From assembly GCA_965213675.1 (NCBI GenBank), contig OZ243916.1:3328001-3392000 (forward strand): a stretch of 64,000 bases of DNA, read 5' to 3'. Origin of the DNA: an uncultured Candidatus Binatia bacterium (GTDB taxonomy: Bacteria > Desulfobacterota > Binatia > UBA9968 > JAJDTQ01). Every line of letters begins with the position of its first letter. Position 1 is the stretch's first letter. Under the pieces are notes generated by a model. The model was not told the origin of the DNA, ran no database searches, and saw nothing but the letters and a program-made list of their open reading frames with translations. The translations under genes were made by a program, and so were the position numbers. Positions 11,601-59,298 of the stretch are shown piece after piece.

Positions 11601-11613
11601 GAGGAGATCGTTA

Positions 11614-12240: not shown

Positions 12241-12267
12241 TCAGCGGTGAACCGTGTTGGAGATCCC

Positions 12268-13293: not shown

Positions 13294-13296
13294 GCC

Positions 13297-13713
13297 ATGC
13301 GGCACTTGAAGAGCGGCAGAAAACTGAACCGTAGCGCGAGTCACCGGCACGCCTTGTGGCGCAACATGACCACCTCGCTGTTGCGGCACGATCGCATCAC
13401 CACCACCGACGCAAAGGCCAAGGAACTGAGGCGTTGGACTGACTGGCTGATCACCCTCGGCAAGGACGGAAGCCTCCACGCCCGGCGCCAGGCGCTGGCC
13501 TTCGTTCAGGACAAGGCCGTCGTGGCGCGTTTGTTCAACGAGCTGGGACCGCGTTTTCGCGACCGCCACGGAGGCTACACGCGGGTCGTGAAGGTGGGCC
13601 GCCGCCGGGGCGACGCGGCGCCGCTGTCCATCATCGAGTTGATACCGGCCGCCGGCGAGGCGACGGCGGGCGGTGACGCGGCCGGCGCGCCGTCCACGAC
13701 GAGCGGAACCTGA
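13297..13713 (+). CDS. rplQ: 50S ribosomal protein L17
   Basis: [24 protein letters not shown]. Confidence 0.97.
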
Positions 13714-13795
13714 GAGACGCTCCCTCGCCACCGCGCGCCGCGGCCGCGGGCCGTGCCCACCGGCAACCGTTGGAATGCGCCGTTCAGGGGTGTCT

Positions 13796-14326
13796 ATGGC
13801 CAACCATCGAAACGCGACCGCCCGCGGCAACGTCTACTTCAGCCGCGGGCAGCTCTTCGGCGTAGCCACGCTGTTCGTGGGCGTGGCGGCCGTTGTTTTC
13901 TTCTTCGGTATCCTCATCGGACAGAGCATCGAGGAGCGCAAGCTTGCCGGCGAGGGTTACGCCGGGATTACGGTCCCGGTGAGCCCGGGCGCGCCCGGCG
14001 ACGACCAGGAGTTGACCTTCTACGACACGTTGACCAAGACGGCTCCGCCCAAGGCCGGCGCGCCTGTCCAGATCCCGCCGGCCGAAGAAGTCAAGACTCC
14101 ATGGACCGTGCAGGTGGCCGCCGCGGAAACCCGGGCGAAAGCCGACAGCATGGTGGCGAAGCTGAAGGAGCGCGGCTACGAGGCGTACGTCACGTCCGGG
14201 CAACTCAACCGAAGGACCTTTTATCGCGTTCGGGTAGGACGGTACCGGAACCGCCAGGAGGCCATGGTGGATCTTCAGCGGCTCAAGAAGGACAAGTACG
14301 ACCCGATGATCATGGGGACCCAATGA
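13796..14326 (+). CDS. SPOR-domain membrane protein (FtsN/DedD-like)
   Basis: N-terminal TM helix, LTFYDTL motif, C-terminal WTVQVAA...YRVRVG SPOR domain. Confidence 0.85.
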
Positions 14327-15339
14327 ACATCCAGCAAGCCATAACCCGCCTGGTGGACGGCGCCGACCTCAACGAGTCGGAGATGGTGGATGTCATGAAC
14401 CAGGTCATGACGGGCGCGGCGACACCGATTCAGGTGGCGGGTTTCCTGACCGCGTTGCGCATCCAGGGCGAGACCGTGGAGGAGGTCACGGGCGCCGCCC
14501 GGGTGATGCGCGAGAAGGCGTTGCGCGTGGAGGCGGGTCCGGGCTGCGTGCTGGATACCTGCGGCACGGGCGGCGACGGCAAGAACACCTTCAACATCTC
14601 CACCACGGTGGCGTTCGTGGTGGCTGCCGCGGGCATCACCGTCGCCAAGCACGGCAACCGGGCGGTGTCCAGCGGGTCCGGCAGCGCGGACGTCCTGGGC
14701 GCTCTCGGGGTCCGGATCGACGTTCCCAGGGAAACGGTGGAACGCTGCCTGCGCGAGGTCGGTCTGGGGTTTCTGTTCGCGCCGATGATGCACGAGGCCA
14801 TGAAGTACGCCGTGGCTCCGCGCCGCGAGCTGGGCATACGGACCATCTTCAACCTCCTGGGTCCTCTGACCAACCCGGCCAGGGCCAGCCATCAGCTCCT
14901 GGGCATCTATGACGGCGCGCTCATCGGAACCGTGGCGCAAGTCCTTGGCAACCTCGGCAGCGACCGGGCCATGGTGGTGCACGGCGACGAAGGCCTCGAC
15001 GAAATATCGCTCGGTGGCCCCACGTCGGTGGCGGAATGGAAGGATGGGGCGGTGGCCCGCTACACGCTTCACCCCGGAGAATTCGGCTTCGAGACGTGTC
15101 CGGCCGAGCGCCTCACCGCCGCCGACCCGGCGGAATGCGCCGCCATCGTGACAGCGATTCTCAAGGGTGAAGCGGGACCGGCGCGGGATGTCGTGCTGCT
15201 CAACAGCGGCGCGGCGCTGTGCGTGAGCGAGCGCGCGGAGACCATCGCCCAAGGCATCGACGTGGCGCGGGAGTGCATCGATTCGGGAGCCGCCATGGGA
15301 AAGCTCGAACACCTGATCCGGCTGACCAATGAAGCATGA
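14323..15339 (+). CDS. trpD: Anthranilate phosphoribosyltransferase
   Basis: DTCGTGGDG, NIST, KHGNR, GLDE; real start ATG 14323. Confidence 0.97.
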   Translation: MNIQQAITRLVDGADLNESEMVDVMNQVMTGAATPIQVAGFLTALRIQGETVEEVTGAARVMREKALRVEAGPGCVLDTCGTGGDGKNTFNISTTVAFVVAAAGITVAKHGNRAVSSGSGSADVLGALGVRIDVPRETVERCLREVGLGFLFAPMMHEAMKYAVAPRRELGIRTIFNLLGPLTNPARASHQLLGIYDGALIGTVAQVLGNLGSDRAMVVHGDEGLDEISLGGPTSVAEWKDGAVARYTLHPGEFGFETCPAERLTAADPAECAAIVTAILKGEAGPARDVVLLNSGAALCVSERAETIAQGIDVARECIDSGAAMGKLEHLIRLTNEA

Positions 15340-43577: not shown

Positions 43578-43609
43578 CGTAGAGAGGTGTGCATTATGAA
43601 GCCCGACTC

Positions 43610-43950
43610 GGCGGGCCGATAAAAATGACGTTTTCGCGGCGATCCAGGAAGCCGAGTTCGTGGAGGCTCTCGATCTGCTCGCGCTTGATGCTGGGCTGGA
43701 AGGCGAAGTCGAACTGGGCCAGGGTCTTCACGGCCGGCAGCCGCGACGAGCGCATGGCGGTCTGGAGGCGGCGGTTGTTGCGCAACCCGATCTGGGCGTC
43801 CAACAACTGCTCGATAGCCTCGCTGGCGGTGGCCGCCCCGCTGTCGGCCTGGGCCAGGACGTCGTCGACGGCCTCGAGCGCGCCCGGCATCTTCAGGTCC
43901 GCCAGCATCGCCCGCAGCCGGTCGCGCCGGTTGCCTGCCTCGGCCCTCAT
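43610..43950 (-). pseudogene. istB: istB 5' fragment
   Basis: KTLAQFDFAFQPSI...ENVIFIGPP; ATGA overlap with istA. Confidence 0.9.
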
Positions 43951-44969
43951 GACACGGCCTCCGCATAGGCGCTGAGCGAGCGCCGCTCGACGTCTACGGT
44001 GACGGGCAGGGGGCGCCGGGCTTGCTGTGGAAGCGTGTGCATACCAAGGCGCCGATACGGGCAACTCGCCAACGGCAGCAGCGCCTGTAGCTCGTCACGC
44101 TCGAAGCGGTCCACCGGGCGCTCCCTGGTGGTGCCGTGCCAGCGCCGGTTCGCGGTTCCCTCAAGCCACAAGCGCACCTGCTCGTTCAGGTCCTCGTCGT
44201 TCAGGAACTCCCGGCCGTAGAAGAAGTTGTTGCGGATGTAGCGGATCGGGCGCTCCACCTTGCCCTTGGTTTGGGCTCGGTACGGCCGGCATGCCCGAGG
44301 CCGGAACCCCCAGTGCGCGGCGAACCGTAAGAAGTCCGCGTTCAACACCAACTCGCCCCCGCCCGCGCGGCCGTCCGACACCACCACCGAACGCATCTGG
44401 TCGAACTACAGCTCCTGCGGCACCCCGCCGAAGCACTCGAAGGCGCTCTCCAGCCCTTCGATCAGCACTGCCATCGTCTGCCGCCTGTAAAACCGCAGCC
44501 ACAACAGCCGGGAGTGGCTCAGAACCGTCACCAGAGCGTGCCGCCGCCCCCAGGGAAGCGTGAACGTCGCAAAGTCCACCTGCCCCTGCCGTCCCGCCGG
44601 CGTCTCGAACCGCACCACCGCCTCCGCCGTCTCCCGCGGCCGTACCGACCGAACGTACTCCCTCACACGGACGTACCCGCCCGTGTACCCCGCCCCTCGT
44701 ACCTCGTCGTATAGCCGCTTCGCCGACAACCGCGGATACTCCTCCAGTCGCGCCTCGATGATCCCCTTGTACGGATCCAGCTTGTGACACACCGCCGGTC
44801 TCGCCCTGTACCGCGTCCCGCCTCCCGACAGATCCCGGTCTAACTGCCCCGTCTCCACCCACTCGTGGATCGTCCGGCGACTCACCCCGAACCGCCGCGA
44901 CAGCTCCGTCTTCGTTACACCCCGTTCCAGATAGTGCCTAAGCAGCATCCTCGTCTCCCATCCGTGCAT
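43947..44969 (-). pseudogene. istA: IS21 transposase IstA with in-frame TAG at 44406-44408
   Basis: RFETPAG.QGQVDF, PQEL*FDQM, KGKVER; both ORF halves share a frame. Confidence 0.9.
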
Positions 44970-45467: not shown

Positions 45468-45570
45468 CAAGCCATTGATTTTGTTAGAAACGTCTGTACA
45501 CCTTTCAGGCTCTGCATCTCCTTATTCTGTTATAACTACAATAATTGTATGAATAGTGTTGGCAACTATG
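45468..45570 (+). promoter_or_regulatory. AT-rich leader of the conjugation operon with an IHF-consensus site and palindromes
   Basis: CAAGCCATTGATT (45468-45480) fits the reverse IHF consensus; TGTACA 45495-45500, GTTATAAC 45529-45536, TACAATAATTGTA 45537-45549. Confidence 0.4.
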
Positions 45571-45617
45571 TGATTGTCGTGCTAGACTCTCAGCACTGAC
45601 CATGAGGAGGACCATAA

Positions 45618-45812
45618 ATGGCGAGAAAACCCACGATCCGCGAGCTTGAACAGCTCTTGGAGTCCGAAGAGGATACCCCCATCGAAATACTGCCGAACGG
45701 CGAGATTCGCGCCCGGGGGGGGAGCGATGCCGCAGAGCGGGGCTACAAGAAGCCTCTCACAATGCGAGAGGACCTCGGCGGCGAGTATGGGCGAGGGGGG
45801 ATCCGGGCATGA
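45618..45812 (+). CDS. 64-aa small protein, candidate peptide modifier
   Basis: Strong GAGGAGG RBS, ATGA coupling to next gene; C-terminus DLGGEYGRGGIRA. Confidence 0.75.
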   Translation: MARKPTIRELEQLLESEEDTPIEILPNGEIRARGGSDAAERGYKKPLTMREDLGGEYGRGGIRA

Positions 45813-46183
45813 ATCTGACAAGGGTTCGCCATGAGATCGCGGCCGCTCAGCAGTACTTCGACTACGTGGAGGGCCATCCAACCCCTGAAGGAGGCGTGAT
45901 TGCGTTGATCGCCTTGCAGACAAGCAGGGATGTGTACACGATGGCCGTCTCCTTCCCGGAGTCTTACCCGAACGGGATGCCGGAGGTGCATGTCAGGAGG
46001 CCCGCGTTGCGACCATCTCCCCACAGGTACACGGACAACAAAATCTGTTTCTTGCATCCGCGCATGTGGAACCCGGGGCGCCACAACCTCGCGTTCGTGA
46101 TTCAGCGAGCGGCGAAGTGGTTCGCGAAGTACGAGGTATACCTCGAGACAGGAAAATGGGCCGGCGTCGAAATTAAGCACTAG
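45809..46183 (+). CDS. Prokaryotic E2/UBC-like protein
   Basis: FPESYP..MP, PHRYTDNKICFL, WNP: UBC YP...P / H-x7-C / W.P pattern. Confidence 0.75.
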   Translation: MNLTRVRHEIAAAQQYFDYVEGHPTPEGGVIALIALQTSRDVYTMAVSFPESYPNGMPEVHVRRPALRPSPHRYTDNKICFLHPRMWNPGRHNLAFVIQRAAKWFAKYEVYLETGKWAGVEIKH

Positions 46184-46187
46184 TACG

Positions 46188-46718
46188 ATGGCGATCGAAT
46201 TCAAGCCATTGCCGATGATGGCATTGCGAAGCAGGCCCGGCGAGGTCCTGGATGAGGTGTCCCGAGATGGCGCAGCGTTCCTCATCGAGAGAAACGGGCA
46301 ACAGAAGGCTTGTCTTGTACCGATATCGTACTTCCTTCCAGACATTCAGACGTCCCGCGTCGCGGAGGAGTTGGACAAGATCATCGACTCGAACGAGCAC
46401 TACCGGATCACAATCAGCGGCCAGCGGGAGATTCAACTCATATTCCGGGAGTTCAGTGGCGAAACGCAGGTCGACGTGACGGTAACGCTACCCCACGGCT
46501 ATCCGAACAAAGCGCCGGTTGTATACGCGGCGCCGATCGATGACGGGTGTCCACACCGTTGGCCGGATGGGACGTTGTGCATATACGGTGCCGTAGCTGT
46601 GTGGAACCCAGGAAAACACGACGTGATGCACGCGGTGGCGCTGTTCAGACGGTGGATCCAGCACTACTCGGTTTGGCGGCAGGCCGGACAATGGCCGACG
46701 GAGGGAACTGAACCATGA
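46188..46718 (+). CDS. Phd/YefM-like DNA-binding domain fused to an E2/UBC-like domain
   Basis: N-term LRSRPGEVLDEV..DGAAFLIERNGQQKACLVP; C-term LPHGYP..AP, PHRWPDGTLCIY, WNP. Confidence 0.7.
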   Translation: MAIEFKPLPMMALRSRPGEVLDEVSRDGAAFLIERNGQQKACLVPISYFLPDIQTSRVAEELDKIIDSNEHYRITISGQREIQLIFREFSGETQVDVTVTLPHGYPNKAPVVYAAPIDDGCPHRWPDGTLCIYGAVAVWNPGKHDVMHAVALFRRWIQHYSVWRQAGQWPTEGTEP

Positions 46719-47566
46719 AGGGTCGGTTGTTCGCGAGGATCGAACAGCTATTCGATGTGAAGGCGTTCGAAGACCTTTGGGTGTTGATTGCAGGGTGCGG
46801 ATCGGGCGGTGGCCAAGTGGCGCTGCAGTTGGCCATGTCTGGAGTGAAGAAGTTCATCCTGGCGGACACGGATAAGCTGGAAGTGGAAAATGTTATCCGG
46901 CACGTCTGCGGGATCCGGTACCTGGGTTGGAAGAAGACGGCGGCCCTTGCTGACGTCTTGAGTGACCGCAACCCGCAGATCGAAGTCAAAGAATTTTACG
47001 GCGACGTAACAGCGTGGCCGAGACTGGCAGAGGAGGTCGAGCGCGCGAGCGTTGTAGTCTTGGGGACGGACAACGAACCGAGCCGGTATCGGCTGAACGA
47101 GGTCTGTGTGGAAACGGCGACGCCGTTCACGGTTGGTCGAGTCTTTACGCGAGGAATTGGGGGTGAGGTGTACTCCTACAGGCCCGGGATCGGCGGCTGC
47201 CTGGCCTGCCTTGAGGGGCTTCTTGAGCGGAGCCAATACCGCGACGGTGTCAGGGAAATCGACCTCGTTTCGGAGGAGGAGCGGCAGAAGGTGTACGACC
47301 TTGAAATCGAGGAGATCAAGGACTCGCCCGGCCTATCGGTGGATATCGGGTTCATCGCAGCCTTCCACACGCGGTTCACTTTGGACGCACTGGGCCACGA
47401 AGCGGAGTCCCCACCTAAGTTTATGACGCCGATCGACCATAACTACCTAGTGTGGGGAAATCGAGCCGTGTACCCGTTCTCGAAGAACTTCGAACTGCAG
47501 CGCATGAAGCTGCCACCGCAGGACGGATGTCTGGTTTGTGGAGGACAAGATGAAGGCCAAGAGTAA
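46715..47566 (+). CDS. ThiF/MoeB-family E1-like adenylyltransferase
   Basis: GCGSGG, D.D...N..RH, K, GTDN..SR, Zn pairs CLAC and CLVC. Confidence 0.88.
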   Translation: MKGRLFARIEQLFDVKAFEDLWVLIAGCGSGGGQVALQLAMSGVKKFILADTDKLEVENVIRHVCGIRYLGWKKTAALADVLSDRNPQIEVKEFYGDVTAWPRLAEEVERASVVVLGTDNEPSRYRLNEVCVETATPFTVGRVFTRGIGGEVYSYRPGIGGCLACLEGLLERSQYRDGVREIDLVSEEERQKVYDLEIEEIKDSPGLSVDIGFIAAFHTRFTLDALGHEAESPPKFMTPIDHNYLVWGNRAVYPFSKNFELQRMKLPPQDGCLVCGGQDEGQE

Positions 47567-48467
47567 GGTGCGGGAGGTACGCTTGGAGATCCCGGGAGTC
47601 GTCCTGGAGAGCGTGTTCGAGGAGTGCGACCGCTATGACCGCGAAGAGACGGGGGGGCGCGTGGTAGGCCATTTCACCATAGATTTCGGGACGCTGGTGG
47701 TGCACGTCGGGGGAGTGATTGAGCCGGGTCCAAATGCCCACCGCACAAGCACCAGCTTCTTTCAAGACGGCGATCACCAAGCTGAGGTGTTCCGCCAACT
47801 CGAGGCGGAAGACCCATCGATCGAGCATCTTGGCAACTGGCATACACATCATGTGAACGGATTTCCGAGGCTGAGTGCAGGCGACGTGGCGACCTATCGC
47901 CGGATCGTGAACCACCAGTTACACAACCTGGATTTCTTCTACGCATTGCTTGTGACGAATAGAAACGAAGGCCGGACCGGACTGGACCGATATGCAGTAC
48001 GGCACCACGTGTTGTTTCGTGGTGAAGAGGCCGTCCACGAAATCCGACCGGCCGATGTACACGTAACGGTCGGGCCGAGGATCTGGCCAAAGGAGGCAGA
48101 CTCTTCCACACAAGCTCCTGGCGCAGGTGGCGCAGAGGACGACGGGGCGCGCGGGATTGTTGAAGTACGGGGGCGGGACCAAAGTGTCCTAGGCGTGCTG
48201 TGCCCCTCGATGGAACCCCGGGTGTCAAACCAAACGGGAACGTTCTTTTGGAAGGGTTCGCTGCCGTTAATCGACGGGTCCACGGTAGAGATTCGGGTCG
48301 CCGAAGTCGAAGACGACGGCGGACTGCTCTACTACCCCATCGTCTCAGGCGTGTCGGCGGATGTGGCTGAGTTGTGCGAAACACCATTCCCGAGCGCGTC
48401 CCACGCGGTCCGTGCGTTGGAGTCGCAGATAAATCGGGAGATTTACGAGTCCGCGATAAGGCGGTGA
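47550..48467 (+). CDS. JAB/MPN metalloprotease with C-terminal extra domain
   Basis: EETGG, GNWHTHH...LSAGD JAMM motif; GGAGG RBS before ATG 47550. Confidence 0.82.
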   Translation: MKAKSKVREVRLEIPGVVLESVFEECDRYDREETGGRVVGHFTIDFGTLVVHVGGVIEPGPNAHRTSTSFFQDGDHQAEVFRQLEAEDPSIEHLGNWHTHHVNGFPRLSAGDVATYRRIVNHQLHNLDFFYALLVTNRNEGRTGLDRYAVRHHVLFRGEEAVHEIRPADVHVTVGPRIWPKEADSSTQAPGAGGAEDDGARGIVEVRGRDQSVLGVLCPSMEPRVSNQTGTFFWKGSLPLIDGSTVEIRVAEVEDDGGLLYYPIVSGVSADVAELCETPFPSASHAVRALESQINREIYESAIRR

Positions 48468-48477
48468 GGGCCAAAAT

Positions 48478-49302
48478 ATGGAAGTGTTGACGCTTTACGT
48501 CGGACAAGGGAATTTCGCCGTCATCCGCCACGGTAGGCAGGCTATCGCAGTGGACACTCGGTGGCTTGCTGACCAATCAGACGATATCGAGTCGACGGTG
48601 GGCCGCTTCCTGCAACGGCGGGAACTTGTGGGCGTCGTGTTGACCGGGTTTGATGACGATCACGCCGATCCCGTCGGGCTGGACTGGTTTCTTGAGAACT
48701 ATACGCCCGGCTGGGTGATGTACCCAAAATACTACAAGGATACCGACAACGCGGAAGCGGTCTTCAACGTGGTTCGGAAGCACGAGCGGCGTCGCCAGGG
48801 CACAGCAAACCCGCTTGAGCGCGTTTCTGTACGGCTTGATCGGCTGGAGTCCCGGTACCTCGATGATCTGTCGGAGGAATTCCAGCTAGAGTTGTTCTCA
48901 CCCCACGTCGAGGACATGGACAGCTCTAACAACTGCAGCATCGTGCTGAAGGTGGAAGGAATCGGTCCGGGCGGATTTACATACTTGGTTACGGGCGACA
49001 CGGAGGTCCCCCGGTGGGACCGGATCGTCCAACTTTTCGACGACGCGTTGGACTCGGACGTTCTGGCGGCGCCACACCACGGATCGAAAAACGCCGCTCA
49101 CCCTGGGATGGTCTTGGCGGTCACACCGAACACGGTGCTTATCAGCGCGGGAGTCGACAACCAGTACGGGCACCCGGACAGAAAAGCGGTGCAGTTGTAT
49201 CTGCGGGTGGCGAAGCGCGTATTTCGGACAAACGTGCGGAACGGAATTTCGCTTCTCACAAGGCGAAACGGCGGGGAGTTCCAGACTACCCGTGTGCGTT
49301 AA
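48478..49302 (+). CDS. Metallo-beta-lactamase-fold hydrolase (ComEC/Rec2-like)
   Basis: VGQG, TGFDDDH, NNCS, TGD, APHHGS, NQYGHP. Confidence 0.85.
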   Translation: MEVLTLYVGQGNFAVIRHGRQAIAVDTRWLADQSDDIESTVGRFLQRRELVGVVLTGFDDDHADPVGLDWFLENYTPGWVMYPKYYKDTDNAEAVFNVVRKHERRRQGTANPLERVSVRLDRLESRYLDDLSEEFQLELFSPHVEDMDSSNNCSIVLKVEGIGPGGFTYLVTGDTEVPRWDRIVQLFDDALDSDVLAAPHHGSKNAAHPGMVLAVTPNTVLISAGVDNQYGHPDRKAVQLYLRVAKRVFRTNVRNGISLLTRRNGGEFQTTRVR

Positions 49303-49462
49303 CGGTCGATGGAATTTTCTTCTGCCCATTGGCGCCACCAACATCCTGGCGCTCTTAGGCGAGCCCTAGACTGAATGATTGGGAACACTTCCAATGCGTT
49401 GGGGCTCTTCAACACAACGGTGTGGAACGGGAAAAGCCCAAACAACCCGAGAGGAACGAATT

Positions 49463-50587
49463 ATGACCTTTGAACTACCAACACGCGGGCTCGTTTTTTG
49501 GCCAGTCGGAAACGGTGACAGCACCACCATCGTCATCGACCCCAAGACCTGTCTCCAGATAGACCTCAACCACCTCGAGAAATCCGAGGACGACGACGCC
49601 TCTTGGCCCGTGGTTGATGAACTTGTCAAGCACCTGCCCAAAGTCAACCGCCGCCCCTATCTCGCTGCGTTCGCGCTCACACATCCTGATCAGGACCATT
49701 GCCGGGGCTTCGCCAAACTCCTCAACGAAGTCGATATCGGTGAATTGTGGTTTACACCTAGAGTGTTCCGTGAGTACAAGAAGGACCTCTGCGACGACGC
49801 GGTGGCATTCAAGAAGGAGACGGAACGCCGCGTTCAGAAGGCTATCGACGCCAAGCACGCCCCAGGCTCGGGCGACCGCATTCGGGTCTTCGGCTACTCC
49901 GACCTGCTGGAAGAGGACGACTTCAAGGATTTCCCCAAGGATCGCCTAACTGTCCCCGGTAATGAACTTACCGTCGTCGACGAGAAGGACTTGGCTGGCC
50001 ACTTCCGCGCCTTCGTCCACGCTCCGTTCAAAGATGATGACGCGGGCGAGCGGAACGATACGAGCCTCGCCATGCAAGTCACGCTCCACGCTGGCCCGCA
50101 AAGACTTCGCGCGCTCCTTCTTGGAGACCTTCCCTACCCGATCATCAAGCGCATCTTCGCGATTAGTGACGCCGAGGACCTCGCCTGGAATGTGCTCCTC
50201 GCACCCCACCACTGCTCGAAGGCCGTAATGTACTGGAAGAATGACGGCGACGACGACGAGAAGCTCAAAAAGCACATCGTCGACGAAATGGACGAGGCGG
50301 CACAGGACCCGAATCGTGTCGTATCCAGCTCCAATCCCGTGCCGTCATCCAACAAGGCTGGCGACAACCCGCCTCACGCCAAGGCAAAGACGCAGTACGA
50401 GACCATCACCGACTCCTTCCTGTGTACGATGGACCAGGATGAACCTATCGTGGCTGAACTTGACCACCAAAGGATCGTTCTCGCCGGGGTTGCGACGGCC
50501 TCCAAGTCCGCATCGCAGGCCGCAGACGAAGCGCGCGGCTCAAACAGACCCCCCGACGGCGCCCACACCTACGGCTGTGGCAAATGA
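49463..50587 (+). CDS. Metallo-beta-lactamase-fold protein of the type found beside E2-E1-JAB fusions
   Basis: VGNGDS, THPDQDH, NDTS, GD, APHHCS, PPH; C-terminal tail HTYGCGK; GAGG RBS before ATG 49463. Confidence 0.85.
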   Translation: MTFELPTRGLVFWPVGNGDSTTIVIDPKTCLQIDLNHLEKSEDDDASWPVVDELVKHLPKVNRRPYLAAFALTHPDQDHCRGFAKLLNEVDIGELWFTPRVFREYKKDLCDDAVAFKKETERRVQKAIDAKHAPGSGDRIRVFGYSDLLEEDDFKDFPKDRLTVPGNELTVVDEKDLAGHFRAFVHAPFKDDDAGERNDTSLAMQVTLHAGPQRLRALLLGDLPYPIIKRIFAISDAEDLAWNVLLAPHHCSKAVMYWKNDGDDDEKLKKHIVDEMDEAAQDPNRVVSSSNPVPSSNKAGDNPPHAKAKTQYETITDSFLCTMDQDEPIVAELDHQRIVLAGVATASKSASQAADEARGSNRPPDGAHTYGCGK

Positions 50588-53500
50588 GTAATGGCTACAC
50601 GCTCGCTGGCGAACAGCTAAGGGAGATCGCCGAAACATCGGAAGGCACCGTTCAAATTCATGACGAAACCACACGGCCAAGCGGCTACCGCCAGTTCGAC
50701 GTAAGCATGCGCTTCGACGGCCTTCAACGTGTCGAAGACGGACTTGCAGTGCGAGCCCGTGAGCCATTCCGCGTCATTGTTTCACCTGCCTTCCCTTTCA
50801 AACATCCCGTTGTCGAGACGCCTCACTCTCGTTTCGCCGGCTTCCGGCACGTACAGTGGCGGCGGAGCCCCTGCCTGTACCAAAGCTCCTCCGATTGGGG
50901 CCCAAGCGACGGCATGTACGGCTTCATTACGCGCCTCGACGCCTGGATACGCGACGCCGCACTTAACAATCTCGACCCGGACGACGCACCCCTCCACCCA
51001 CCAGTCGAGTACCCCACGGTCCATCGCCTAATTGTGCCCAAGGCAAATACGCCGGCGGTCTCTGGCACGCCATGGTTTGGATTCGCCAAACTCCGCGAAA
51101 GGAACCATCGCACCGAGATCATTGGATGGGAAGAGAACAGCCAAGAAGGCTCTGACTTCGCGCCTGCAATCCTCCTCCACGAGAATCTTCCCTTCGAATA
51201 CCCCGAAACTGTCCACGCTCTACTGAAAGAACTCGAATTCCACGGAATCGACTATGTGCCCTTTGTCTTCCGACTTGCCGCCCAGGCACGACGCAGCGAC
51301 GCAGGCACACCGCTAACCGTAGTTCTTGGAACTCCGATGCGCCGCGTCGACCCGGGGGGGCCTACCCTTCAGCACTTGGCCGTGTGGGAGATTTCTGCCG
51401 ACGACGCGGACAAGCTGCGCGAGCTGAACATCTCCGCGCAGTTCCGCGGGTCACCGCGATGGGAAGCCGCGACGACGGCGGTCGCCGAATGGGCTGTGTT
51501 TGCCAAGGTGGGGTGGTGCATCGTCCGTGAGATGCGGCCCGAAGTGACCAGCAGACGCGACCATTCATCAGCCATGGCTTGGTTTCGTGGAAAGCGTGTG
51601 GCCATCTGGGGTTGCGGCGCCGTAGGCACTCACGTGGCGGAATCGATTGTACGCGCCGGGGCCAGAACCGTTGAACTCGTCGACAACAAGACTGTTGCAC
51701 CCGGTCTCCTAGTACGGCAAGTCTTCGAAGACGCCGACATCGGAGAGTTTAAGGCCCAAGCGCTCGCCGAACGACTTAAACGGATCGAACCTGACCTCGA
51801 GACACATGTTTCAACCGACGACCTTGTCCTACGTATCATAGGTCCACACCCGGTCCCGGAGGTGGACTTGATAGTCGACTGCACAGCTTCATCGGCCGTT
51901 CAGACAGCCCTCGAGCGAGCACTCCAGGCCGTCGACTCACGCCCCGCGATAGCTGCTGTATCCATCGATAGCCAAGCCGCCACGGCCATTGCCACTCTCT
52001 CTTCGCGCAACCACAGCGGTGCGACCCTCGACCTTGTTCGCCGGCTCAAGCTGGAAGCATGTAGCACACCGGCGCTTTCGAAGGTCCTTGAGGCATTCTG
52101 GCCAAGAACAACGCCAAGTGAGCGCTTTCAGCCAGAGCCCGGCTGTTCGGAACCGACGTTCATCGGTTCCGACGCAGATCTTGCCGCGCTATCTGCGCGC
52201 ATGCTGAATTCCATCACTCACGCTATTGGAAACCCCCGCGATGGCCACACGGGGGCAGGTTGGTTGTTGGAAGAATCGGGAGCGTTACGTGGTTTCGCGT
52301 GGCCTCCGGACCACACCCTGAGGGATGAGGGGCGGGGCTACTCCGTCAGGGTATCTTCACTGGCCGCGCGGGAAATGCGAGGATGGGCTAGGCGTTCCGC
52401 ACGTACGGTCGGCTCAACAGTCGAGACGGGCGGCCTCGTCTTCGGCGAGCTCAACGAAGCCGCGACCGTTCTCTGGGTAACAGATGTCGAGGGACCGCCA
52501 CCCGACAGCGAGGCAGCTGGGGATCATTTCACCTGCGGCACGGACGGCATGGAAACCGTTGCCCAAGAAAGGCAACGCAGGTTCCGTGGATCTGTAGACT
52601 GCCTCGGTAGTTGGCACACCCACCCAACGTCAGCACCCCATCCAAGTCGCGTCGACATCGGCGCTGTCATACAGCTTCTCGCCAACCCGGGTTCGACCCG
52701 TCGAACTTGCCTTGTTTTGATCCTCTCTGGTGACCCGGATGACCCAAGACTGGGCGCGTATGCCTTCAGAACAAAACTAGTCGGCGAAACGCTCATCCGC
52801 ATCCAACCAAGCGCGGCTGCAACCGCGTCCCTTGGGCCAAAGCCAAAGAAACCGCGCAACATCGGAACTGCCCTCTCAGGCGGAGGCTCGCGCGCCATCG
52901 CGTTCCACCTCGGGTGCCTGCGCGCCCTGCACGACCTCGATCTACTCAGCCGTGTTCAGGTAATTTCGAGCGTCTCCGGCGGGTCTATAATCGCGGCCAT
53001 GTACGCCTATTCTTGCGACTCGTTTCGGGAGTTTGACGCGCGTGTTGTAGAGCTTCTTCATCGAGGATTCAAACGGGATATCTTCCGCGAGGTGTTCAAG
53101 CTGGTTTCAATTGGGAAGATCCTGCGACGCCATGTCAGGGCGACCGCGTCTTTCCTATCTCGCACGTTCCTTCGGCTACTTCACGCCGTCGTGAGACCGG
53201 TTGTGGCTCATCGCCAAGGCCCGCCGCCGACCCGCACGTTCAGCCGCACGGAGGCGTTTCGCGACATCATTGCCACCTCCCAATTCGGTGACACCATCGT
53301 ACGCGACGTCGCCCGACATTCACTCCATACGGTCATCAATGCCACAGAACTACGAACCGGCTCCGCATTTCGGTTCGGAAGCAGCCAAAGCGGCTGCTGG
53401 CGATTCGGCACGATTCCCCCCGAAGACGCTCTGGTTGCAGACGCCGTGGCTGCCTCGGCGGCGTACCCGGCACTCTTCCCGGCACTCGAGCGCGAGTACC

Positions 53501-53994
53501 GCTTCACGAAGAACGGGTCCAGCACCGATGCCGCGCGCGTTCTGCTTACCGACGGTGGGGTCTTTGAGAACCTCGGCGTGAATCCGATGGAGCCGGGCCG
53601 GACACCTTCGGTCACCACTAACGTCTTCGACCCCGACTACATTATTTGCTGCGACGCGGGTGCTGGTCTATTCGATGATGACAGCTACCCGACACGTTTG
53701 CACACCCGGATATACAGATCGTTCCTCACGGTCTTTCGCAAGGTCCAAGACGCCACCCGAAAACGCCTACACCACCTTGCCGACGCCGGGGAAATCTCCG
53801 GCTTCGCGTTATGCTATCTCGGGCAGCAGGACAATGCCTTGCCCTGGGTACCAGCAGGTCTTCCTAGAAGGGATGAGGTTCGAGATTACCCTACCGACTT
53901 CGCCGCGATGTCAACGGAAGACGTCGATCGGTTAGCTCTCCGTGGAGAACTCCTGATGAGGCTTCTCGTTGCGTACTACCTCCCAGACCTCTAA
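50584..53994 (+). CDS. E2-E1-JAB-patatin four-domain fusion
   Basis: E2: FPFKHP, HVQW..SPCLY; E1: GCGAVG, DCTAS, EPGCSEPTF; JAB: ETGG, WHTHP....PS.VD; patatin: LSGGGSR, SSVSGG, DGG. Confidence 0.85.
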   Translation: MSNGYTLAGEQLREIAETSEGTVQIHDETTRPSGYRQFDVSMRFDGLQRVEDGLAVRAREPFRVIVSPAFPFKHPVVETPHSRFAGFRHVQWRRSPCLYQSSSDWGPSDGMYGFITRLDAWIRDAALNNLDPDDAPLHPPVEYPTVHRLIVPKANTPAVSGTPWFGFAKLRERNHRTEIIGWEENSQEGSDFAPAILLHENLPFEYPETVHALLKELEFHGIDYVPFVFRLAAQARRSDAGTPLTVVLGTPMRRVDPGGPTLQHLAVWEISADDADKLRELNISAQFRGSPRWEAATTAVAEWAVFAKVGWCIVREMRPEVTSRRDHSSAMAWFRGKRVAIWGCGAVGTHVAESIVRAGARTVELVDNKTVAPGLLVRQVFEDADIGEFKAQALAERLKRIEPDLETHVSTDDLVLRIIGPHPVPEVDLIVDCTASSAVQTALERALQAVDSRPAIAAVSIDSQAATAIATLSSRNHSGATLDLVRRLKLEACSTPALSKVLEAFWPRTTPSERFQPEPGCSEPTFIGSDADLAALSARMLNSITHAIGNPRDGHTGAGWLLEESGALRGFAWPPDHTLRDEGRGYSVRVSSLAAREMRGWARRSARTVGSTVETGGLVFGELNEAATVLWVTDVEGPPPDSEAAGDHFTCGTDGMETVAQERQRRFRGSVDCLGSWHTHPTSAPHPSRVDIGAVIQLLANPGSTRRTCLVLILSGDPDDPRLGAYAFRTKLVGETLIRIQPSAAATASLGPKPKKPRNIGTALSGGGSRAIAFHLGCLRALHDLDLLSRVQVISSVSGGSIIAAMYAYSCDSFREFDARVVELLHRGFKRDIFREVFKLVSIGKILRRHVRATASFLSRTFLRLLHAVVRPVVAHRQGPPPTRTFSRTEAFRDIIATSQFGDTIVRDVARHSLHTVINATELRTGSAFRFGSSQSGCWRFGTIPPEDALVADAVAASAAYPALFPALEREYRFTKNGSSTDAARVLLTDGGVFENLGVNPMEPGRTPSVTTNVFDPDYIICCDAGAGLFDDDSYPTRLHTRIYRSFLTVFRKVQDATRKRLHHLADAGEISGFALCYLGQQDNALPWVPAGLPRRDEVRDYPTDFAAMSTEDVDRLALRGELLMRLLVAYYLPDL

Positions 53995-54256
53995 CGATCG
54001 ATCCCCCCTTTCCACTGCGCACCGTGCCCTCAGGAGCGGAGACTTCGAGGGTCATCGCGATTGGAACCTACGCCGGTGATGCCCAACAGTACCAGCGACC
54101 CTCAGCACCGAAGGATAAGGGGCCCCCGGACAATAGTCCTCGACCCGTCCCGGACCATTCGGCGATCAGCGCGCTGATCGCCCTCGTCGTGCGGGGGCGG
54201 TCCAGTGGCCGTCGTGATTTACGGCTCGTATCAGCTGTGAAACTGGATGTGGTGAT

Positions 54257-55312
54257 TTAGGTGCTTCTCTTGAGGGCGATGTGGAGCAGTTTCGTTTGGT
54301 AGGTAGCGATGCTGTGATCGCTGAGGAGGCTACCCCATTTGTTCGTCCCATTGAAGATCGCCCGAACCCGTCTGCCCCAACCGACCGTGTAGAGCAGGGT
54401 AGCCCTGGAGAAGTCGCCGTCCTTGCAGTTGGTGATAAATCGCATGTTGCCGCCGTGTTCGTAGCCGGAGAAGTACCGTTCGAGCATGTTGCCGATCCAT
54501 ACGAGGAAGGTAAGGAAAGGGGCAAGGCGCCCTAACGCGCGAAGCCCCTTTGTCAGGAGGGCTATCGCCGTGCCGGTTAAAGGGACCATCGGGACGACGT
54601 CGGCCGAGTTCACGATCCTGTAGACCGGACTCTTGATTTGCCCAAGCCACGCCTCGCTCCCGCTCCGGGGCGACCCGTAGGTGTAGCAGGCGGCAATCTG
54701 TCGCTCCGCGCTCAGGCGTCTGGTGGCAATGGTCGCTACTGCCCCGCCGAGGCTGTGGCCCGTAATGAAAAGGGGCTTGTTCGCAACCCCTTCCATATCC
54801 AGCGCCGCCTCAATCGCATCCTCGACATCATTGTACTGGCCCTGGAAACCGGCATGGACGTGTCCGCCAGTTCGGCTCCGCGCCTTATAGGATTTCAGAT
54901 CAGCCCTGATATCACGTATGGATGTTGATTCCGTTCCCCGGAATGCTAGGACGGCGTGATCCGTACTGTAGGCTACAAAGGCTTGGGTGGCGTTTACGCT
55001 GATAGTTTTCGCCAAGGTCCAGCCGATCTTCTTCAACCGACTACTCAGTCTGGCCTCTTCAGCTTCGTAATCTTGTCCGCAGGCCTTCGTGATGGCTCCG
55101 AGTATCTTCGCGTCAGAGCTCTTCGGCAGTCCTCTCAGGGCACGTTGGACGAGCTTAAGAACGGCCTCTCCCTCGAAGGCGGATTTGTCGAACTTCAGAT
55201 AGGCCAATTCCGACATGTAGGCCATGAGCCAAGCAGCTCGATCGCTGTACGCCTTGCGGTAGTCGGGCATCTTCTTGCCGAGAACCTTATCGTGCAAATC
55301 CTGTTCGACCAT
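54257..55312 (-). CDS. Class 3 lipase-family alpha/beta hydrolase
   Basis: AFRGT, VHAGF, GHSLGG, TYGSPR, DVVP, DH. Confidence 0.88.
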   Translation of the reverse strand: MVEQDLHDKVLGKKMPDYRKAYSDRAAWLMAYMSELAYLKFDKSAFEGEAVLKLVQRALRGLPKSSDAKILGAITKACGQDYEAEEARLSSRLKKIGWTLAKTISVNATQAFVAYSTDHAVLAFRGTESTSIRDIRADLKSYKARSRTGGHVHAGFQGQYNDVEDAIEAALDMEGVANKPLFITGHSLGGAVATIATRRLSAERQIAACYTYGSPRSGSEAWLGQIKSPVYRIVNSADVVPMVPLTGTAIALLTKGLRALGRLAPFLTFLVWIGNMLERYFSGYEHGGNMRFITNCKDGDFSRATLLYTVGWGRRVRAIFNGTNKWGSLLSDHSIATYQTKLLHIALKRST

Positions 55313-56402: not shown

Positions 56403-57700
56403 GCAGGTTGTTGAAAAACTTGGCCTGACGCGGATAACAGTAAATAACATATTGGTATCGACCGGGAGTAAGGGATGAGAGGAACGGATCCGCGCCAGGA
56501 AGGGATGTTCAGCTATGTGTCGCTGGAGGCGCGGGTGCGGGCGGACCATCCATTGCGAGCGATACGGAAGATGGTGAACCGTGCGCTTGAAGGACTGACG
56601 CGGGAGTTTGAGGAGATGTACTCGCACACGGGGCGGCCTTCGATAGCGCCGGAGCAGTTGCTGCGTGCGTTGCTGCTTCAGGTGCTTTACTCGATCCGTA
56701 GCGAACGGTTGTTGGTGGAGCAACTGGACTACAACTTGCTGTTCCGGTGGTTTGTGGGACTGTCGATGGACGATCCGGTGTGGGGCCACTCGACGTTCAC
56801 CAAGAACCGACAGCGGTTGATCGGGTCGGACATGGCGCGGGCCTTTTTCGGGCAGATACTGGGCCAGGCCCGCGAAGGACGCCTTTTGTCGGATGAACAC
56901 TTCAGCGTGGACGGGACGTTGCTGGAGGCGTGGGCGTCGATGAAGTCGTTCCGGCCGAAAGACGGAGGCGGACGGCTTGGTGGCGGCGGACGCAATGCGG
57001 AGGCGGACTTCCACGGCGAGAAGCGCAGCAATGCGACCCACCAGTCGAGCACCGATCCGCAGGCACGGCTGTACCGCAAGGGCCAGGGACGGGAAGCGAA
57101 GCTGCGCTACCTGGGCCATGCGTTGATGGATAACCGCCATGGACTGATCGTCGATACCCGTACCACCGAAGCCGGCGGCCGGGCTGAGCGCGAGGCGGGC
57201 TTGGCGATGATTGCCGCGCGTCCCGGCGCCGATCGGCTCACCCTCGGGGCGGACAAGGGATACGATACAAAAGACTTTGTGGAGGGACTGCGCTGCGCCA
57301 ACGTCAGTCCGCATGTGGCCCAGAACGACACCCGCCAGCGTTCCGCCATTGACCGGCGCACCACCCGTCACCGTGGTTACGCGGTGAGCCAGCGCATCCG
57401 CAAACGGATCGAGGAAGGCATCGGCTGGGCCAAGACCATCGGAGGCATGCGCAAACTCAAGCACCGGGGCCTGCCCAAGGTCGACTTCCAGTTCACCCTC
57501 ACCTTCGCCGTCTACAACCTGGTGCGACTGCGTACCCTGGGAGTCGGAGGTTGAGCATGCGTCCATGGCCTCCGGGCGTCTGCGCCGGCTTCGTTGGCCT
57601 GAAATGGCCCGCGAAACAAGTTCTGCTTCACGCCCTGAAGCCGGCTTTTCCATCGATTCTCTCACAAACGCTCAAATCTAGGCGTTTTTCCACGGCCTGC
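56403..57700 (+). mobile_element. IS5-family insertion sequence, apparently intact
   Basis: IRs GCAGGTTGTTGAAAAAC / GTTTTTCCACGGCCTGC (14/17), flanked by TA on both sides. Confidence 0.88.
56475..57554 (+). CDS. IS5-family DDE transposase
   Basis: DHPLR, GRPSI, VDGT, ADKGYD, RKRIEE, YNL. Confidence 0.93.
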   Translation: MRGTDPRQEGMFSYVSLEARVRADHPLRAIRKMVNRALEGLTREFEEMYSHTGRPSIAPEQLLRALLLQVLYSIRSERLLVEQLDYNLLFRWFVGLSMDDPVWGHSTFTKNRQRLIGSDMARAFFGQILGQAREGRLLSDEHFSVDGTLLEAWASMKSFRPKDGGGRLGGGGRNAEADFHGEKRSNATHQSSTDPQARLYRKGQGREAKLRYLGHALMDNRHGLIVDTRTTEAGGRAEREAGLAMIAARPGADRLTLGADKGYDTKDFVEGLRCANVSPHVAQNDTRQRSAIDRRTTRHRGYAVSQRIRKRIEEGIGWAKTIGGMRKLKHRGLPKVDFQFTLTFAVYNLVRLRTLGVGG

Positions 57701-57829
57701 TAGCAGCAAGGCTAGAGGCATGGAGACGCTGATGAGCTGGGGTCGGCTCGATAGCGAGACAAGGGGCTCCATCGTGGACGCCTCTTCCTTGTTATTGACC
57801 TATGTCGATGGACACCATACACCTGAAAA

Positions 57830-58108
57830 GCGATCAGGGCCTTTCGGCATCGTGGCTTGAGAGATCTCTATGAGCAGGGCCGTTCGCCGAAGGTGGCTCA
57901 GGAGCATGTGCAAAAACTCTTGCGCATCCTGACGGCCCTAGACCACTCCACTCGTCCGGAGGGAATGGATATGCCAGGCTTTCGACTGCACCCCCTCAAG
58001 GGCCGCATGCGGAGACACCATGCGGTGTTCGTCTCGGGGAACTGGCGGGTGACGTTTCGGTTCGAAGATGGCCACGCCGTAGATGTCGATTATCTGGATT
58101 ACCATTAA
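57830..58108 (+). CDS. higB: HigB/RelE-family toxin; expected start codon reads GCG, possibly inactive
   Basis: IRAFRHRGL..LYE, LHPLKG, VSGNWRVTFRF, DYLDYH. Confidence 0.75.
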   Translation, partial: AIRAFRHRGLRDLYEQGRSPKVAQEHVQKLLRILTALDHSTRPEGMDMPGFRLHPLKGRMRRHHAVFVSGNWRVTFRFEDGHAVDVDYLDYH

Positions 58109-58119
58109 GAGGTGCTCTC

Positions 58120-58407
58120 GTGGCAATGAACAATCCTGTACACCCCGGCGCCATCGTGCGTGAAGACTGCCTGAAACCGCTGGGTTTGTCCGTGACCGAA
58201 GGCGCAAAGCGGCTCGGTATCGGACGTCAGACTCTTTCCAATTTGGTCAACGAAAAGGCATCCGTCTCGATTGAGATGGCCTACCGCCTGTCGAAGGCGT
58301 TTGGCTCCACGCCTGAAACCTGGCTCGCCATGCAGTTGGCCTTCGACCTCGCAGGGTCACGGCACCTGGAACAGAAAATAAAGGTGAGAAGAATCGCTGC
58401 CGCGTAG
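58120..58407 (+). CDS. higA: HigA antitoxin
   Basis: PVHPG, HTH, EMAYRLSKAFGSTPETWL.MQ. Confidence 0.92.
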   Translation: MAMNNPVHPGAIVREDCLKPLGLSVTEGAKRLGIGRQTLSNLVNEKASVSIEMAYRLSKAFGSTPETWLAMQLAFDLAGSRHLEQKIKVRRIAAA

Positions 58408-58528
58408 GCCTTCATCGGTGTTCGACAAATACCGGCGGTCTCATCCCAACTCGGGCTGTTTGTCGAGGGCGACCTACAGACCACGCATCGGACGGACGTG
58501 CTGTAGCAGCGCTCCATTTCTAGGGGGG

Positions 58529-58610
58529 TGAGGTGGTCCTGGTTTGTAGGACAGGGAGGCGGCGGAGTTAAGGCGTATTCCAGACGTTCAATCATGCCGC
58601 CAAGGTCCGC
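58529..58610 (-). repeat. IS3-family right-end relic
   Basis: TGAGGTGGTCC...GGACAG and AAGGYGTATTCC shared with the IS3 end at 38414. Confidence 0.6.
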
Positions 58611-58661
58611 GAAGCACTCGCGGGTAAACTTCGCCAGATCAAGCATGATCTGATTTGTCTT

Positions 58662-58687
58662 GCATACCAGACAAAAGTCTGGTATGC
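58662..58687. promoter_or_regulatory. Perfect palindrome upstream of lexA, candidate LexA operator
   Basis: GCATACCAGAC-AAAA-GTCTGGTATGC, overlapping TTGCAT-N17-TATGCG. Confidence 0.7.
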
Positions 58688-58695
58688 GCATCCTC

Positions 58696-59298
58696 ATGAC
58701 ACCCTTCACTCCACCGGGGGAGACCCGGGACAAGGTTTACCGGTTCGTGCGCAGGCGGACCCTGGAGGAGCTTCCTCCCACGGTTCGGGAGGTCCAGGAG
58801 GCGTTCCGATTCAGGGCGGTGCAGACAGCCCGGCAGCACCTGGAGCGGCTGGTGGCCGAGGGGCGGCTGGTCAAGGCGCACGGGAAATCCAGGGGCTACC
58901 GACTGCCCCGGGAGCCCGGGACGCTGTTGGTACCGTTGCTGGGGCGGGTGCAGGCCGGCGGTCTGCGGGCGGCCATCGAGGAATGCGAAGGCTACATCCC
59001 GGTCCAGTCACGGGGCTCGGAGGAAGTGTTCGGGCTCCGGGTCCAGGGAGAAAGCATGACCGGAGCGGGCATCCTTCCCGGCGACATCGTCGTCGTGAGG
59101 CAGCAGGCGGAAGCCGCCTCGGGGGACATCGTCGTGGCCCTGGTGGGCGACGAGGCCACCATCAAGAGGCTACGCCTGCGCCAGAGCCGGATCGAGCTGC
59201 ATCCGGAGAACCCGGCTTTCGCAACCATCGTTCCCAGGGCCGATGAGTGCACCGTCCTGGGCAAGGTGGTGGAGGTGAGACGCTATCTGGAAGGATAG
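58696..59298 (+). CDS. lexA: SOS repressor LexA (imu-cassette associated)
   Basis: PPTVRE wHTH, VQAG cleavage site, GESM Ser, ATIK Lys; start 58684 or 58696. Confidence 0.95.
   Translation: MTPFTPPGETRDKVYRFVRRRTLEELPPTVREVQEAFRFRAVQTARQHLERLVAEGRLVKAHGKSRGYRLPREPGTLLVPLLGRVQAGGLRAAIEECEGYIPVQSRGSEEVFGLRVQGESMTGAGILPGDIVVVRQQAEAASGDIVVALVGDEATIKRLRLRQSRIELHPENPAFATIVPRADECTVLGKVVEVRRYLEG

Follow-up and report, generated by a model that had tools for sequence, protein, structure and literature searches.

This locus raises the question of what a phospholipase does at the end of a polypeptide that otherwise consists of ubiquitin-type conjugation and deconjugation enzymes, and whether it belongs there at all. 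The locus (49463-53994) lies in a stretch of 64,000 nucleotides from an uncultured Candidatus Binatia bacterium (contig OZ243916.1, positions 3,328,001 to 3,392,000; 'the window', whose numbering is used throughout) and comprises two genes, i.e. one for a metallo-β-lactamase (MBL)-fold protein and, directly downstream, one for a fusion of E2, E1, JAB and patatin domains. We propose, with a probability of roughly 0.55, that this pair represents a subtype of the 6A-MBL anti-phage system with three functions, in which the MBL-fold protein, trimmed by JAB and conjugated by E1 and E2, would gate the patatin as an abortive-infection effector, the whole being carried by a mobile cassette. The components of this proposal differ in strength: a function of the pair in defence is likely, conjugation through a glycine of the MBL-fold protein is reasonably probable, and for the patatin being an effector gated by the conjugation cycle the odds are about even.

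Two coupled genes with intact catalytic residues

The fusion gene (50584..53994; like all features below on the forward strand, unless a minus sign is given) is an open frame of 1136 aa containing four Pfam domains, each of which exceeds its own gathering score. From the N-terminus, these are an E2 domain (Prok-E2_A; 50617..51036, residues 12-151, 65.7 bits) with the catalytic Cys97 (50872-50874) within SPCLY; an E1 (ThiF) adenylation domain (51541..52263; Pfam match to residues 336-449, 67.9 bits) with the residues G343xGxxG348, R378, K390 and D432 and the catalytic Cys521 (52144-52146) within PEPGCSEPTF; a JAB/JAMM metallopeptidase domain (52321..52773; Prok-JAB residues 611-697, 28.2 bits vs. 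a cut-off of 25) with the JAMM motif E614, H678xH680, S688 and D691; and a patatin-like phospholipase domain (52852..53994; Patatin residues 763-1000, 74.0 bits vs. a cut-off of 27.7, E 2.3e-20). The last two are connected by a linker of about 26-30 residues (52774..52851), which is unconserved in an alignment of fusions. In the patatin domain we find G766-G768-x-R770, Ser798 in SVSGG (52975-52977) and Asp990 in D990-G-G (53551-53553), with a nucleophile motif that reads S-x-S-x-G, unlike the textbook G-x-S-x-G. A first-pass annotation of the window, made from the sequence alone, had described an open reading frame (ORF) of just this length with intact E2, E1, JAMM and patatin motifs; all of these could be located in the translation, and the presence of E2, E1, JAB and patatin in one ORF is borne out by Pfam, with the PADLOC E1-E2 and JAB models concurring.

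Conservation of the catalytic residues is complete. Across 32 diverse fusion proteins, aligned at 33-63% identity, E2 Cys97 and the E1 glycine loop, R378, K390, D432 and Cys521 are invariant (32/32), and so are the JAMM residues E614, H678, H680, S688 and D691 (32/32) and, in the patatin part, G766-G768, R770, S798, G800 and D990-G992 (32/32). By sequence, the nearest solved relative of the E2-E1 core is Cap2 (7to3, E 8.8e-25) of CBASS (a phage-defence signalling system based on cyclic oligonucleotides).

The MBL-fold protein (49463..50587, 374 aa) starts at an ATG at 49463 preceded by an SD-like (Shine–Dalgarno-like) GAGAGGAA and ends with ...AHTYGCGK; the TGA (50585-50587) shares bases with the start codon of the fusion gene (ATG, 50584-50586), giving ATGA, i.e. 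the coupling and the tail noted in the first-pass annotation are seen in the sequence. In a Pfam scan it had zero matches. It does match the NCBIfam model NF058524 ('anti-phage 6A-MBL system MBL-fold protein') with 280.9 bits at a cut-off of 220, and residues 53-707 of the fusion protein match NF058523 ('6A-MBL system cap2_3 protein') with 350.2 bits vs. a cut-off of 320. In 29/29 homologues there is no variation in the metal motifs H74-x-D76-x-D78-H79, H186, D222 and H249-H250, and the MBL-fold protein is therefore probably an active hydrolase too.

These matches identify the 'known family' to which the pair had been assigned from the sequence alone. The anti-phage role of 6A-MBL is said to go back to van den Berg et al. 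2024. Its operon, with an MBL gene beside an E2-E1-JAB fusion, corresponds to row 6a in Table 1 of Iyer, Burroughs and Aravind (2006; PMC1779556), and passages of more recent papers (PMC13276650, PMC11601596, bioRxiv 2025.09.30.679545) cite 6A-MBL as an anti-phage system, with defence against jumbo phages.

A fusion conserved among homologues

Could the fusion be an artefact, i.e. the product of a lost stop codon or of a misassembly that joined E2-E1-JAB with a separate patatin gene? Certain relatives do have the patatin as a gene of its own, which would suit such an origin; homologues and independent contigs speak against it. When 5.8 billion proteins were searched (8000 candidates scored, 1172 below E 0.001), ThiF and patatin were found in one polypeptide in each of the best 120 of the 1172 clusters (62-90% identity, 988-1156 aa), with all four Pfam domains together in 110 of these 120. 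The possibility that homologues always encode the patatin separately, which the first-pass annotation had allowed for, is thus contradicted by the closest relatives. A second search, an exhaustive phmmer run against 50%-identity representatives, reached further. Among the best 150 matches listed there, 124 align with the E2-E1-JAB core over 600 residues or more (the 26 shorter ones being excluded), and these near-full-length representatives comprise 38 with a patatin, 84 that stop shortly past the JAB domain and two with another long C-terminal extension that has no Pfam match.

The junction itself is equally well documented. A same-genus genome carries an identical open frame layout at 90% identity. 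Contigs from three runs of one study, which is possibly the source study, cross all 4532 bases of the locus and show 0 differences. The same 4532-base stretch is also covered, in frame and at about 93% identity, by a sponge-metagenome contig of 12 kb that comes from a separate study. In the latter, the sole insertion or deletion is an in-frame GAT, and the linker region (52772-52841) is of equal length and has diverged. Inspected across these contigs, the linker junction is therefore intact in the three runs and in frame in the separate study. With fused homologues, junction-spanning contigs and the same-genus copy at hand, we reject a lost stop codon or misassembly, which has become extremely improbable, and regard it as close to certain that this is a real, conserved fusion of the 6A-MBL lineage. 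Public annotation of such proteins reads either 'patatin-like phospholipase family protein' or 'ThiF family adenylyltransferase'. The fourth domain had also been singled out as the unusual part; this holds relative to canonical 6A-MBL only, the domain being common to at least 120 clusters at 90% identity and to 38 of 124 representatives at 50% identity.

The patatin as a third component

The same patatin lineage also occurs as a separate gene. A tblastn search against plasmids gave 99 records, and in the six loci inspected the patatin lineage always adjoins a JAB/E1 gene (6/6): it is a gene of its own directly 3' of E2-E1-JAB in four and broken in the remaining two, i.e. those of Rhodococcus DK17 and R. 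leguminosarum, where the patatin part is frameshifted or in two pieces. On the Streptomyces sp. NBC_01220 plasmid, a hypothetical protein (the MBL homologue), ThiF, Mov34 and patatin are encoded by four genes in this order; the Bradyrhizobium sp. 26S5 plasmid has a hypothetical protein, then a 755-aa ThiF-family protein and then a 391-aa patatin; and on the B. barranii and Roseomonas plasmids, the patatin gene comes right after that of the JAB-containing protein. These stand-alone patatins begin precisely at the start of the fused domain, ...IGLALSGGGSRA.

On a tree of the core (FastTree, 125 rows), the fused state is scattered and corresponds to 28 changes, at least 17 of which are forced by starred branches, vs. 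a mean of 33.4 when states were shuffled (3/500 shuffles as low); branches in this tree are deep, and rows scored 'no patatin' may have a separate patatin gene. Gene neighbourhoods of the 84 unfused representatives lie outside the view of this comparison, in which loss and fission are indistinguishable for them. Within the fusion, the patatin is the best conserved part, with a mean identity of 44% vs. 38% for the core, and its distances correlate with the core distances (r 0.63; 0/2000 permutations as high). The patatin parts are one lineage, and an old association of patatin and core with repeated fission, fusion or loss seems the simplest reading. Because the same lineage is found either fused or as a separate gene next to E2-E1-JAB on plasmids, the patatin is a true third component of the system, whether fused or split; the fusion is under selection, and fusion together with fission shows a functional link between the patatin and E2-E1-JAB.

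A looser relationship would be conceivable as well. The patatin may just localize the machine at the membrane or be a separately triggered lipase, with conjugation regulating the MBL-fold protein alone. The ease with which the patatin is split or lost on the core tree would fit such independence, and so would the composition of canonical 6A-MBL loci. For the latter, 400 genomes were sampled and scored from the class to which one fusion-carrying metagenome-assembled genome (MAG) belongs. Seven of these exceeded the family cut-off: six are canonical (764-837 aa per frame, 558-705 bits), and the seventh is the centre genome itself, which is fused (frame of 1145 aa, 343 bits). In tblastn searches, the MBL gene was detected in four of the six canonical loci, and a patatin in none of the six within 1.5-kb flanks. 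On the other hand, the Ser-Asp dyad and the oxyanion motif are invariant (32/32), which argues that catalysis, beyond anchoring, is under selection, and both the co-divergence of patatin and core and the constant neighbourhood of patatin and JAB/E1 genes on plasmids are not what independent parts would lead one to expect. A mere anchor or an independent lipase therefore seems quite unlikely to us, and we keep to the patatin as a functionally linked third component.

How the two parts are joined bears on a further idea of the first-pass annotation, i.e. that JAB might cleave its own polypeptide to control the phospholipase. In 29 of the 32 fusions, the linker measures 27-36 residues; its mean pairwise identity is 8.7%, with no common motif, and it looks like a tether rather than a processing site. 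Since the linker is motif-free and poorly conserved and the patatin is already a separate gene in other genomes, we consider self-cleavage unlikely, and we have rejected it as a candidate mechanism.

With respect to its fold, the patatin part could be modelled well (AlphaFold2 (AF2), 40 sequences; pLDDT 90.1, pTM 0.88). Foldseek matched the model to plant patatin, PlpD, CapE, CapV, VipD, cPLA2 and ExoU over a range of E 3e-11 to 5e-4, TMq 0.34-0.50 and 12-18% identity. According to this model, it has a patatin fold that is near to no single one of these matches. Candidates for a lid or for an element that binds the membrane are the long helix of a variable insert (model residues 107-137, protein ~830-915) and a helical region conserved at the C-terminal end. 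CapV, the CBASS effector to which the patatin had been likened, turned out to be a relative at the level of the fold only: the best match to the PADLOC CBASS phospholipase effectors has E = 0.001 and 16 bits, and orthology to CapV was rejected on this basis.

The tail of the MBL-fold protein as a putative conjugation handle

If the fusion protein conjugates anything, the best candidate is the protein encoded right upstream. Its C-terminal tail (50570..50584) consists of Tyr370-Gly371 followed by CGK before the stop codon and is a putative site of JAB trimming and E1 adenylation. Tyr370 and Gly371 are invariant in 29/29 homologues, and residues beyond them are unconserved. In a larger set of 120 homologues (73-93% identity), 14 end with [T/D]YG, 85 have two, 13 have three and 5 have four additional residues, and the motif is absent in 3; Tyr-Gly with 0-4 trailing variable residues is thus found in 117 of the 120. 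More distant 6A MBL-fold proteins end with ...PPRAG (two loci), ...PPRAG plus three residues, ...TPRAG, ...GFG+R or ...GFG+AA. In ubiquitin-like precursors, too, a glycine is conserved, and the few residues that come after it are dispensable. The tail therefore looks like a conjugation handle resembling the end of a precursor of a ubiquitin-like protein (Ubl), which is in line with what the first-pass annotation had suggested for it. The pattern also fits a statement in PMC11601596, according to which a fused E2-E1 serves to conjugate the enzymes of type II CBASS, Pycsar and MBL pathways. We propose that the MBL-fold protein is a conjugated, Ubl-like substrate and possibly a hydrolase effector as well.

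A model of the complex is consistent with a direct interaction. E2-E1 (residues 1-580) and the trimmed MBL-fold protein (1-371), each with a separate alignment, gave an interface score (ipSAE) of 0.65 (runs 0.65, 0.69 and 0.61), with 0.00 for the best control; the mark applied to this score is attained by 58 of 80 solved complexes and by 2 of 110 mismatched pairs. At least 90% of the contacts are shared between runs, and the partner pLDDT is at least 84. The predicted interface brings residues 295, 306-319 and 342-363 of the MBL-fold protein together with residues 11-24, 41-61 and 108-120 of the E2 domain and, on the MBL side, takes in a conserved C-terminal helix around 349-358. The model thus supports binding of the E2 domain via this helix. 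As a monomer the MBL-fold protein is modelled poorly (AF2, mean pLDDT 54.6) and was left out of the fold search; a sequence search of the PDB with its profile gave a best match at chance level (E 0.86), i.e. neither a solved relative by sequence nor a solved complex in which this protein takes part, and Atlas look-ups for this protein and for the JAB protein encoded further upstream returned generic MBL and JAB neighbours alone.

A proposed mechanism and its weak points

Taken together, these data suggest the following sequence of events. First, the MBL-fold protein would be made with 0-4 surplus residues after Tyr-Gly and trimmed by JAB, exposing Gly371; this step is suggested by the tail pattern and by analogy with the Cap3 and Bil peptidases. 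Second, E1 would adenylate Gly371, and the MBL-fold protein would move to Cys521, then to Cys97 of E2 and finally to a target lysine, while being held on the E2 domain by its conserved C-terminal helix as in the complex model. The intact and invariant catalytic residues as well as the homology to CBASS Cap2 argue for this step, and the JAB domain would also undo the attachment. Third, in what is the weakest step, which we infer, phage infection may tip the balance of conjugation and deconjugation and thereby turn on the tethered patatin, which would hydrolyse membrane lipids so that the infection is aborted. The metal-dependent MBL-fold protein could act as a second hydrolytic effector. This scheme would involve no cyclic-nucleotide messenger.

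In a more specific version, the MBL-fold protein would serve as a large Ubl modifier, and either its thioester on Cys97 or its isopeptide linkage to the fusion protein would open the active site of the patatin, with the unfused genes found upstream of the pair (see below) perhaps providing a second input or a safeguard. In this detail the proposal is tentative and of rather low probability; if true, ubiquitin-like chemistry would trigger membrane destruction without a nucleotide messenger.

Several observations weigh against our proposal. The last 8 residues of the MBL-fold protein have no confident contact in the complex model, and the tail is not placed in the E1 pocket; the model therefore backs binding and is silent on adenylation. 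That conjugation switches the lipase is something we purely infer. Given that a patatin was found near none of the six canonical loci, the 6A family can work without it, and the MBL-fold protein may be the chief effector. The unfused gene set upstream may take part in ways that our scheme ignores. Finally, decayed copies exist, with a frameshift in locus L005, a truncation in L004 and a broken patatin in L008 and L015.

Activation by a small molecule would be a different solution to the same problem. Primed by conjugation like the CD-NTases of type II CBASS, the MBL-fold protein could make or release a second messenger, e.g. a nucleotide or a piece of lipid, that binds and activates the patatin, as cGAMP activates CapV, in a system that has no cyclase. 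The patatin fold is as near to the ligand-activated CapV and CapE as to others (Foldseek E ~1e-9, TMq ~0.5), conserved additional helical regions lie outside the Pfam patatin domain, the metal site of the MBL-fold protein is intact, and PMC11601596, in the passage concerned, puts MBL among the 'signaling enzymes' of CBASS and Pycsar. Yet, a diffusible signal needs no physical fusion of effector and conjugation machinery, and the similarity to PADLOC CBASS phospholipases is marginal (E 0.001). MBL-fold enzymes, moreover, are generally hydrolases, as textbook knowledge has it. We therefore regard a messenger as unlikely and continue with conjugation as the candidate trigger of the patatin.

What makes this subtype attractive is its experimental accessibility. 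In its treatment of cyclase-free systems, PMC11601596 assigns 'unknown targets' to Cap2-like E2-E1 machinery. Here, such machinery is coupled to an enzyme whose activity is easily read as lipid hydrolysis and membrane leakage; each step is addressable by point mutants, and natural fused and split versions are available for comparison. The system thus offers a tractable route to how conjugation becomes cell killing, and the obvious killing part in a 6A-MBL variant makes its control testable now.

Genomic context and distribution

The pair is part of a larger cassette of 8.6 kb (45558..54133, delimited by blastn), in which an unfused E2/E2/E1/JAB/MBL set precedes the MBL gene and the fusion gene. 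In a same-genus genome (G025, locus L012), 6092-14674 corresponds to 45558-54133 of the window with 92.5% identity over 8586 bases, and no further part of the window between 40 and 62 kb matches this genome by blastn. Identified by family scans, the unfused set (45809..49302) encodes an E2-like ORF (45809-46183), an ORF with a Phd/YefM-like N-terminus and an E2-like part (46188-46718), an unfused E1 (46715-47566), a JAB protein extended C-terminally by 150 aa that match no family (47538-48467) and a ComEC-like MBL that lacks a Gly tail (48478-49302). The set fits none of rows 6a-6e in the table of PMC1779556. It accompanies the pair in G025 and, with the same genes in identical order, in L001 from a Terriglobia MAG, and is not found with it in L002, L003, L005 and L006; the genome loci other than L001 are thus four with the pair only and L004, which has a truncated fusion gene and no MBL. 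An MBL gene is immediately upstream of the fusion gene in five of six related loci.

The GC content of the pair region is 0.56-0.61, with 0.63-0.70 for the genome. The same low-GC stretch includes, at 43594-44969 and 56475-59298, an IstB fragment, an integrase-core fragment with a helix-turn-helix (HTH) and a DDE transposase (DUF772 + DDE_Tnp_1) as well as a HigB-like toxin and an S24/LexA-like repressor, and altogether it looks like an accessory island rich in insertion sequences. A class 3 lipase (Lipase_3, E 1e-22) is encoded convergently to the fusion gene at 54257-55312 (-), about 120 bases outside the cassette; by tblastn it is absent from L001-L006. The window from 38 to 64 kb contains no tRNA, and neither promoter-like sites (3 vs. 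2.3 in shuffles) nor terminator-like sites (5 vs. 8.1) are in excess.

Among close relatives, the system is rare. It is present in one of 27 other same-genus genomes and in none of 33 same-order genomes, and with the patatin part as a query at E 1e-35 a phylum sample gave 0 of 400 genomes. Since copies of 65-81% identity are nevertheless found in MAGs labelled Terriglobia, Gemmatimonadetes, Arenicellales and Porisulfidus, this patchy and mobile distribution indicates horizontal spread, as judged from sequence comparison. It also bears on whether the pair serves in phage defence at all, rather than as a weapon in conflicts or host interaction or as a lipid-remodelling system. Close copies come mainly from uncultured MAGs, with the one of about 93% identity in a sponge-metagenome run, and pathogen patatins that target host membranes (ExoU, VipD) are among the fold matches. 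However, neither a secretion signal nor secretion genes were seen in the cassette, both proteins of the pair score above the NCBIfam equivalog cut-offs for an anti-phage system, and the occurrence is not only patchy but island-borne and plasmid-borne. A role outside defence thus seems very unlikely, and anti-phage defence remains our working assumption.

Some related loci have features of their own. In L005 (8001-11412), the fusion gene matches in two frames with one TGA and one TAG inside, which may reflect decay or assembly errors. The copy in L004 (7971-11207, Gemmatimonadetes MAG) begins at query residue 73 and has a Pfam-blank 536-aa ORF upstream. In L002 and L006 (Porisulfidus), the pair is surrounded by housekeeping genes, and a second MBL-like ORF (11428-12318 (-)), convergent and directly past the fusion gene, has no Pfam match and shares 29% identity with residues 13-118 of the 6A MBL-fold protein. 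L003 (3277-6618 (-), Arenicellales MAG) has genes for an AAA ATPase and a subtilase (Peptidase_S8) divergently oriented just upstream of the pair, which may be another defence pair. On plasmid pDK1 of Rhodococcus sp. DK17 (L008, 6400-7544), the patatin shifts frame within the oxyanion-motif region and is unannotated there; the sister plasmid of Rhodococcus strain DK176 does have an annotated patatin feature.

Comparison with known systems

The base 6A-MBL system is already known, and it is the patatin-bearing subtype that appears to be new. In the literature searched, a patatin-bearing 6A system, whether fused or with three genes, is undescribed; the primary 6A-MBL paper and its supplements lie outside that search and may list it. 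The word 'patatin' occurs 0 times in PMC1779556.

As in 6A-MBL, E2, E1 and JAB are found here in one polypeptide, in the same order and beside a specialized MBL gene; both proteins of the pair exceed the curated NCBIfam cut-offs; E2 Cys, E1 Cys, JAMM and MBL metal ligands are all intact; and the MBL-fold protein has a C-terminal Gly as in canonical members. Unlike in 6A-MBL, a patatin phospholipase of about 380 aa is fused behind JAB, the core scores 343-363 bits on the family model vs. 558-705 for canonical members, the tail reads ...TYG instead of the ...PPRAG of canonical loci, and the pair is accompanied by a second, unfused E2/E1/JAB/MBL set. The original layout with two genes and two functions is thus extended by a fourth, fused domain. 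Because of the fused patatin, with canonical loci having no patatin nearby, we file the pair as a subtype of 6A-MBL rather than as a canonical member, and the patatin type is, by its scores, a divergent branch barely above the family cut-off. 6A-MBL would then be a family with exchangeable effectors and not a fixed two-gene unit.

Type II CBASS has similar parts, with a Cap2-like E2-E1, a Cap3-like JAB, a patatin-fold effector and a partner enzyme whose C-terminus is a Gly tail. In contrast to CBASS, no CD-NTase is found here, the MBL-fold protein taking the place of the cyclase: the SMODS cyclase family PF18144 has zero matches in the genome (97.7% complete), and no cyclase is among the ORFs of the cassette, so that the cyclase-free nature suggested in the first-pass annotation holds for SMODS-type cyclases. 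Also, the effector is covalently joined to the conjugation enzyme, and the patatin and CapV are not orthologues (PADLOC E 0.001; 14-18% identity). The Bil and Bub systems, as described in the relevant part of PMC11601596, have the chemistry of E1, E2 and a JAB-type peptidase in common with the pair and use it against phages; there, however, E1 and E2 are separate proteins, and what they conjugate is a dedicated beta-grasp Ubl. Here, a family scan of the cassette ORFs gave no match to a Ubl family, and the 150-aa extension of the upstream JAB had no match at all.

As to the effector, the patatin phospholipase ExoU is activated by ubiquitin. The patatin fold and the Ser-Asp dyad are shared with CapV (activated by cGAMP; PDB 9kej/8zr9) and VipD (Rab5; PDB 4kyi), which, as far as these entries and their descriptions go, are latent enzymes activated by a partner, and this is the logic that we propose for the fusion. 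Unlike in these cofactor-activated patatins, the candidate activator here would be an MBL-fold protein handled by E1, E2 and JAB domains that are present in cis, i.e. on the same polypeptide as the phospholipase itself.

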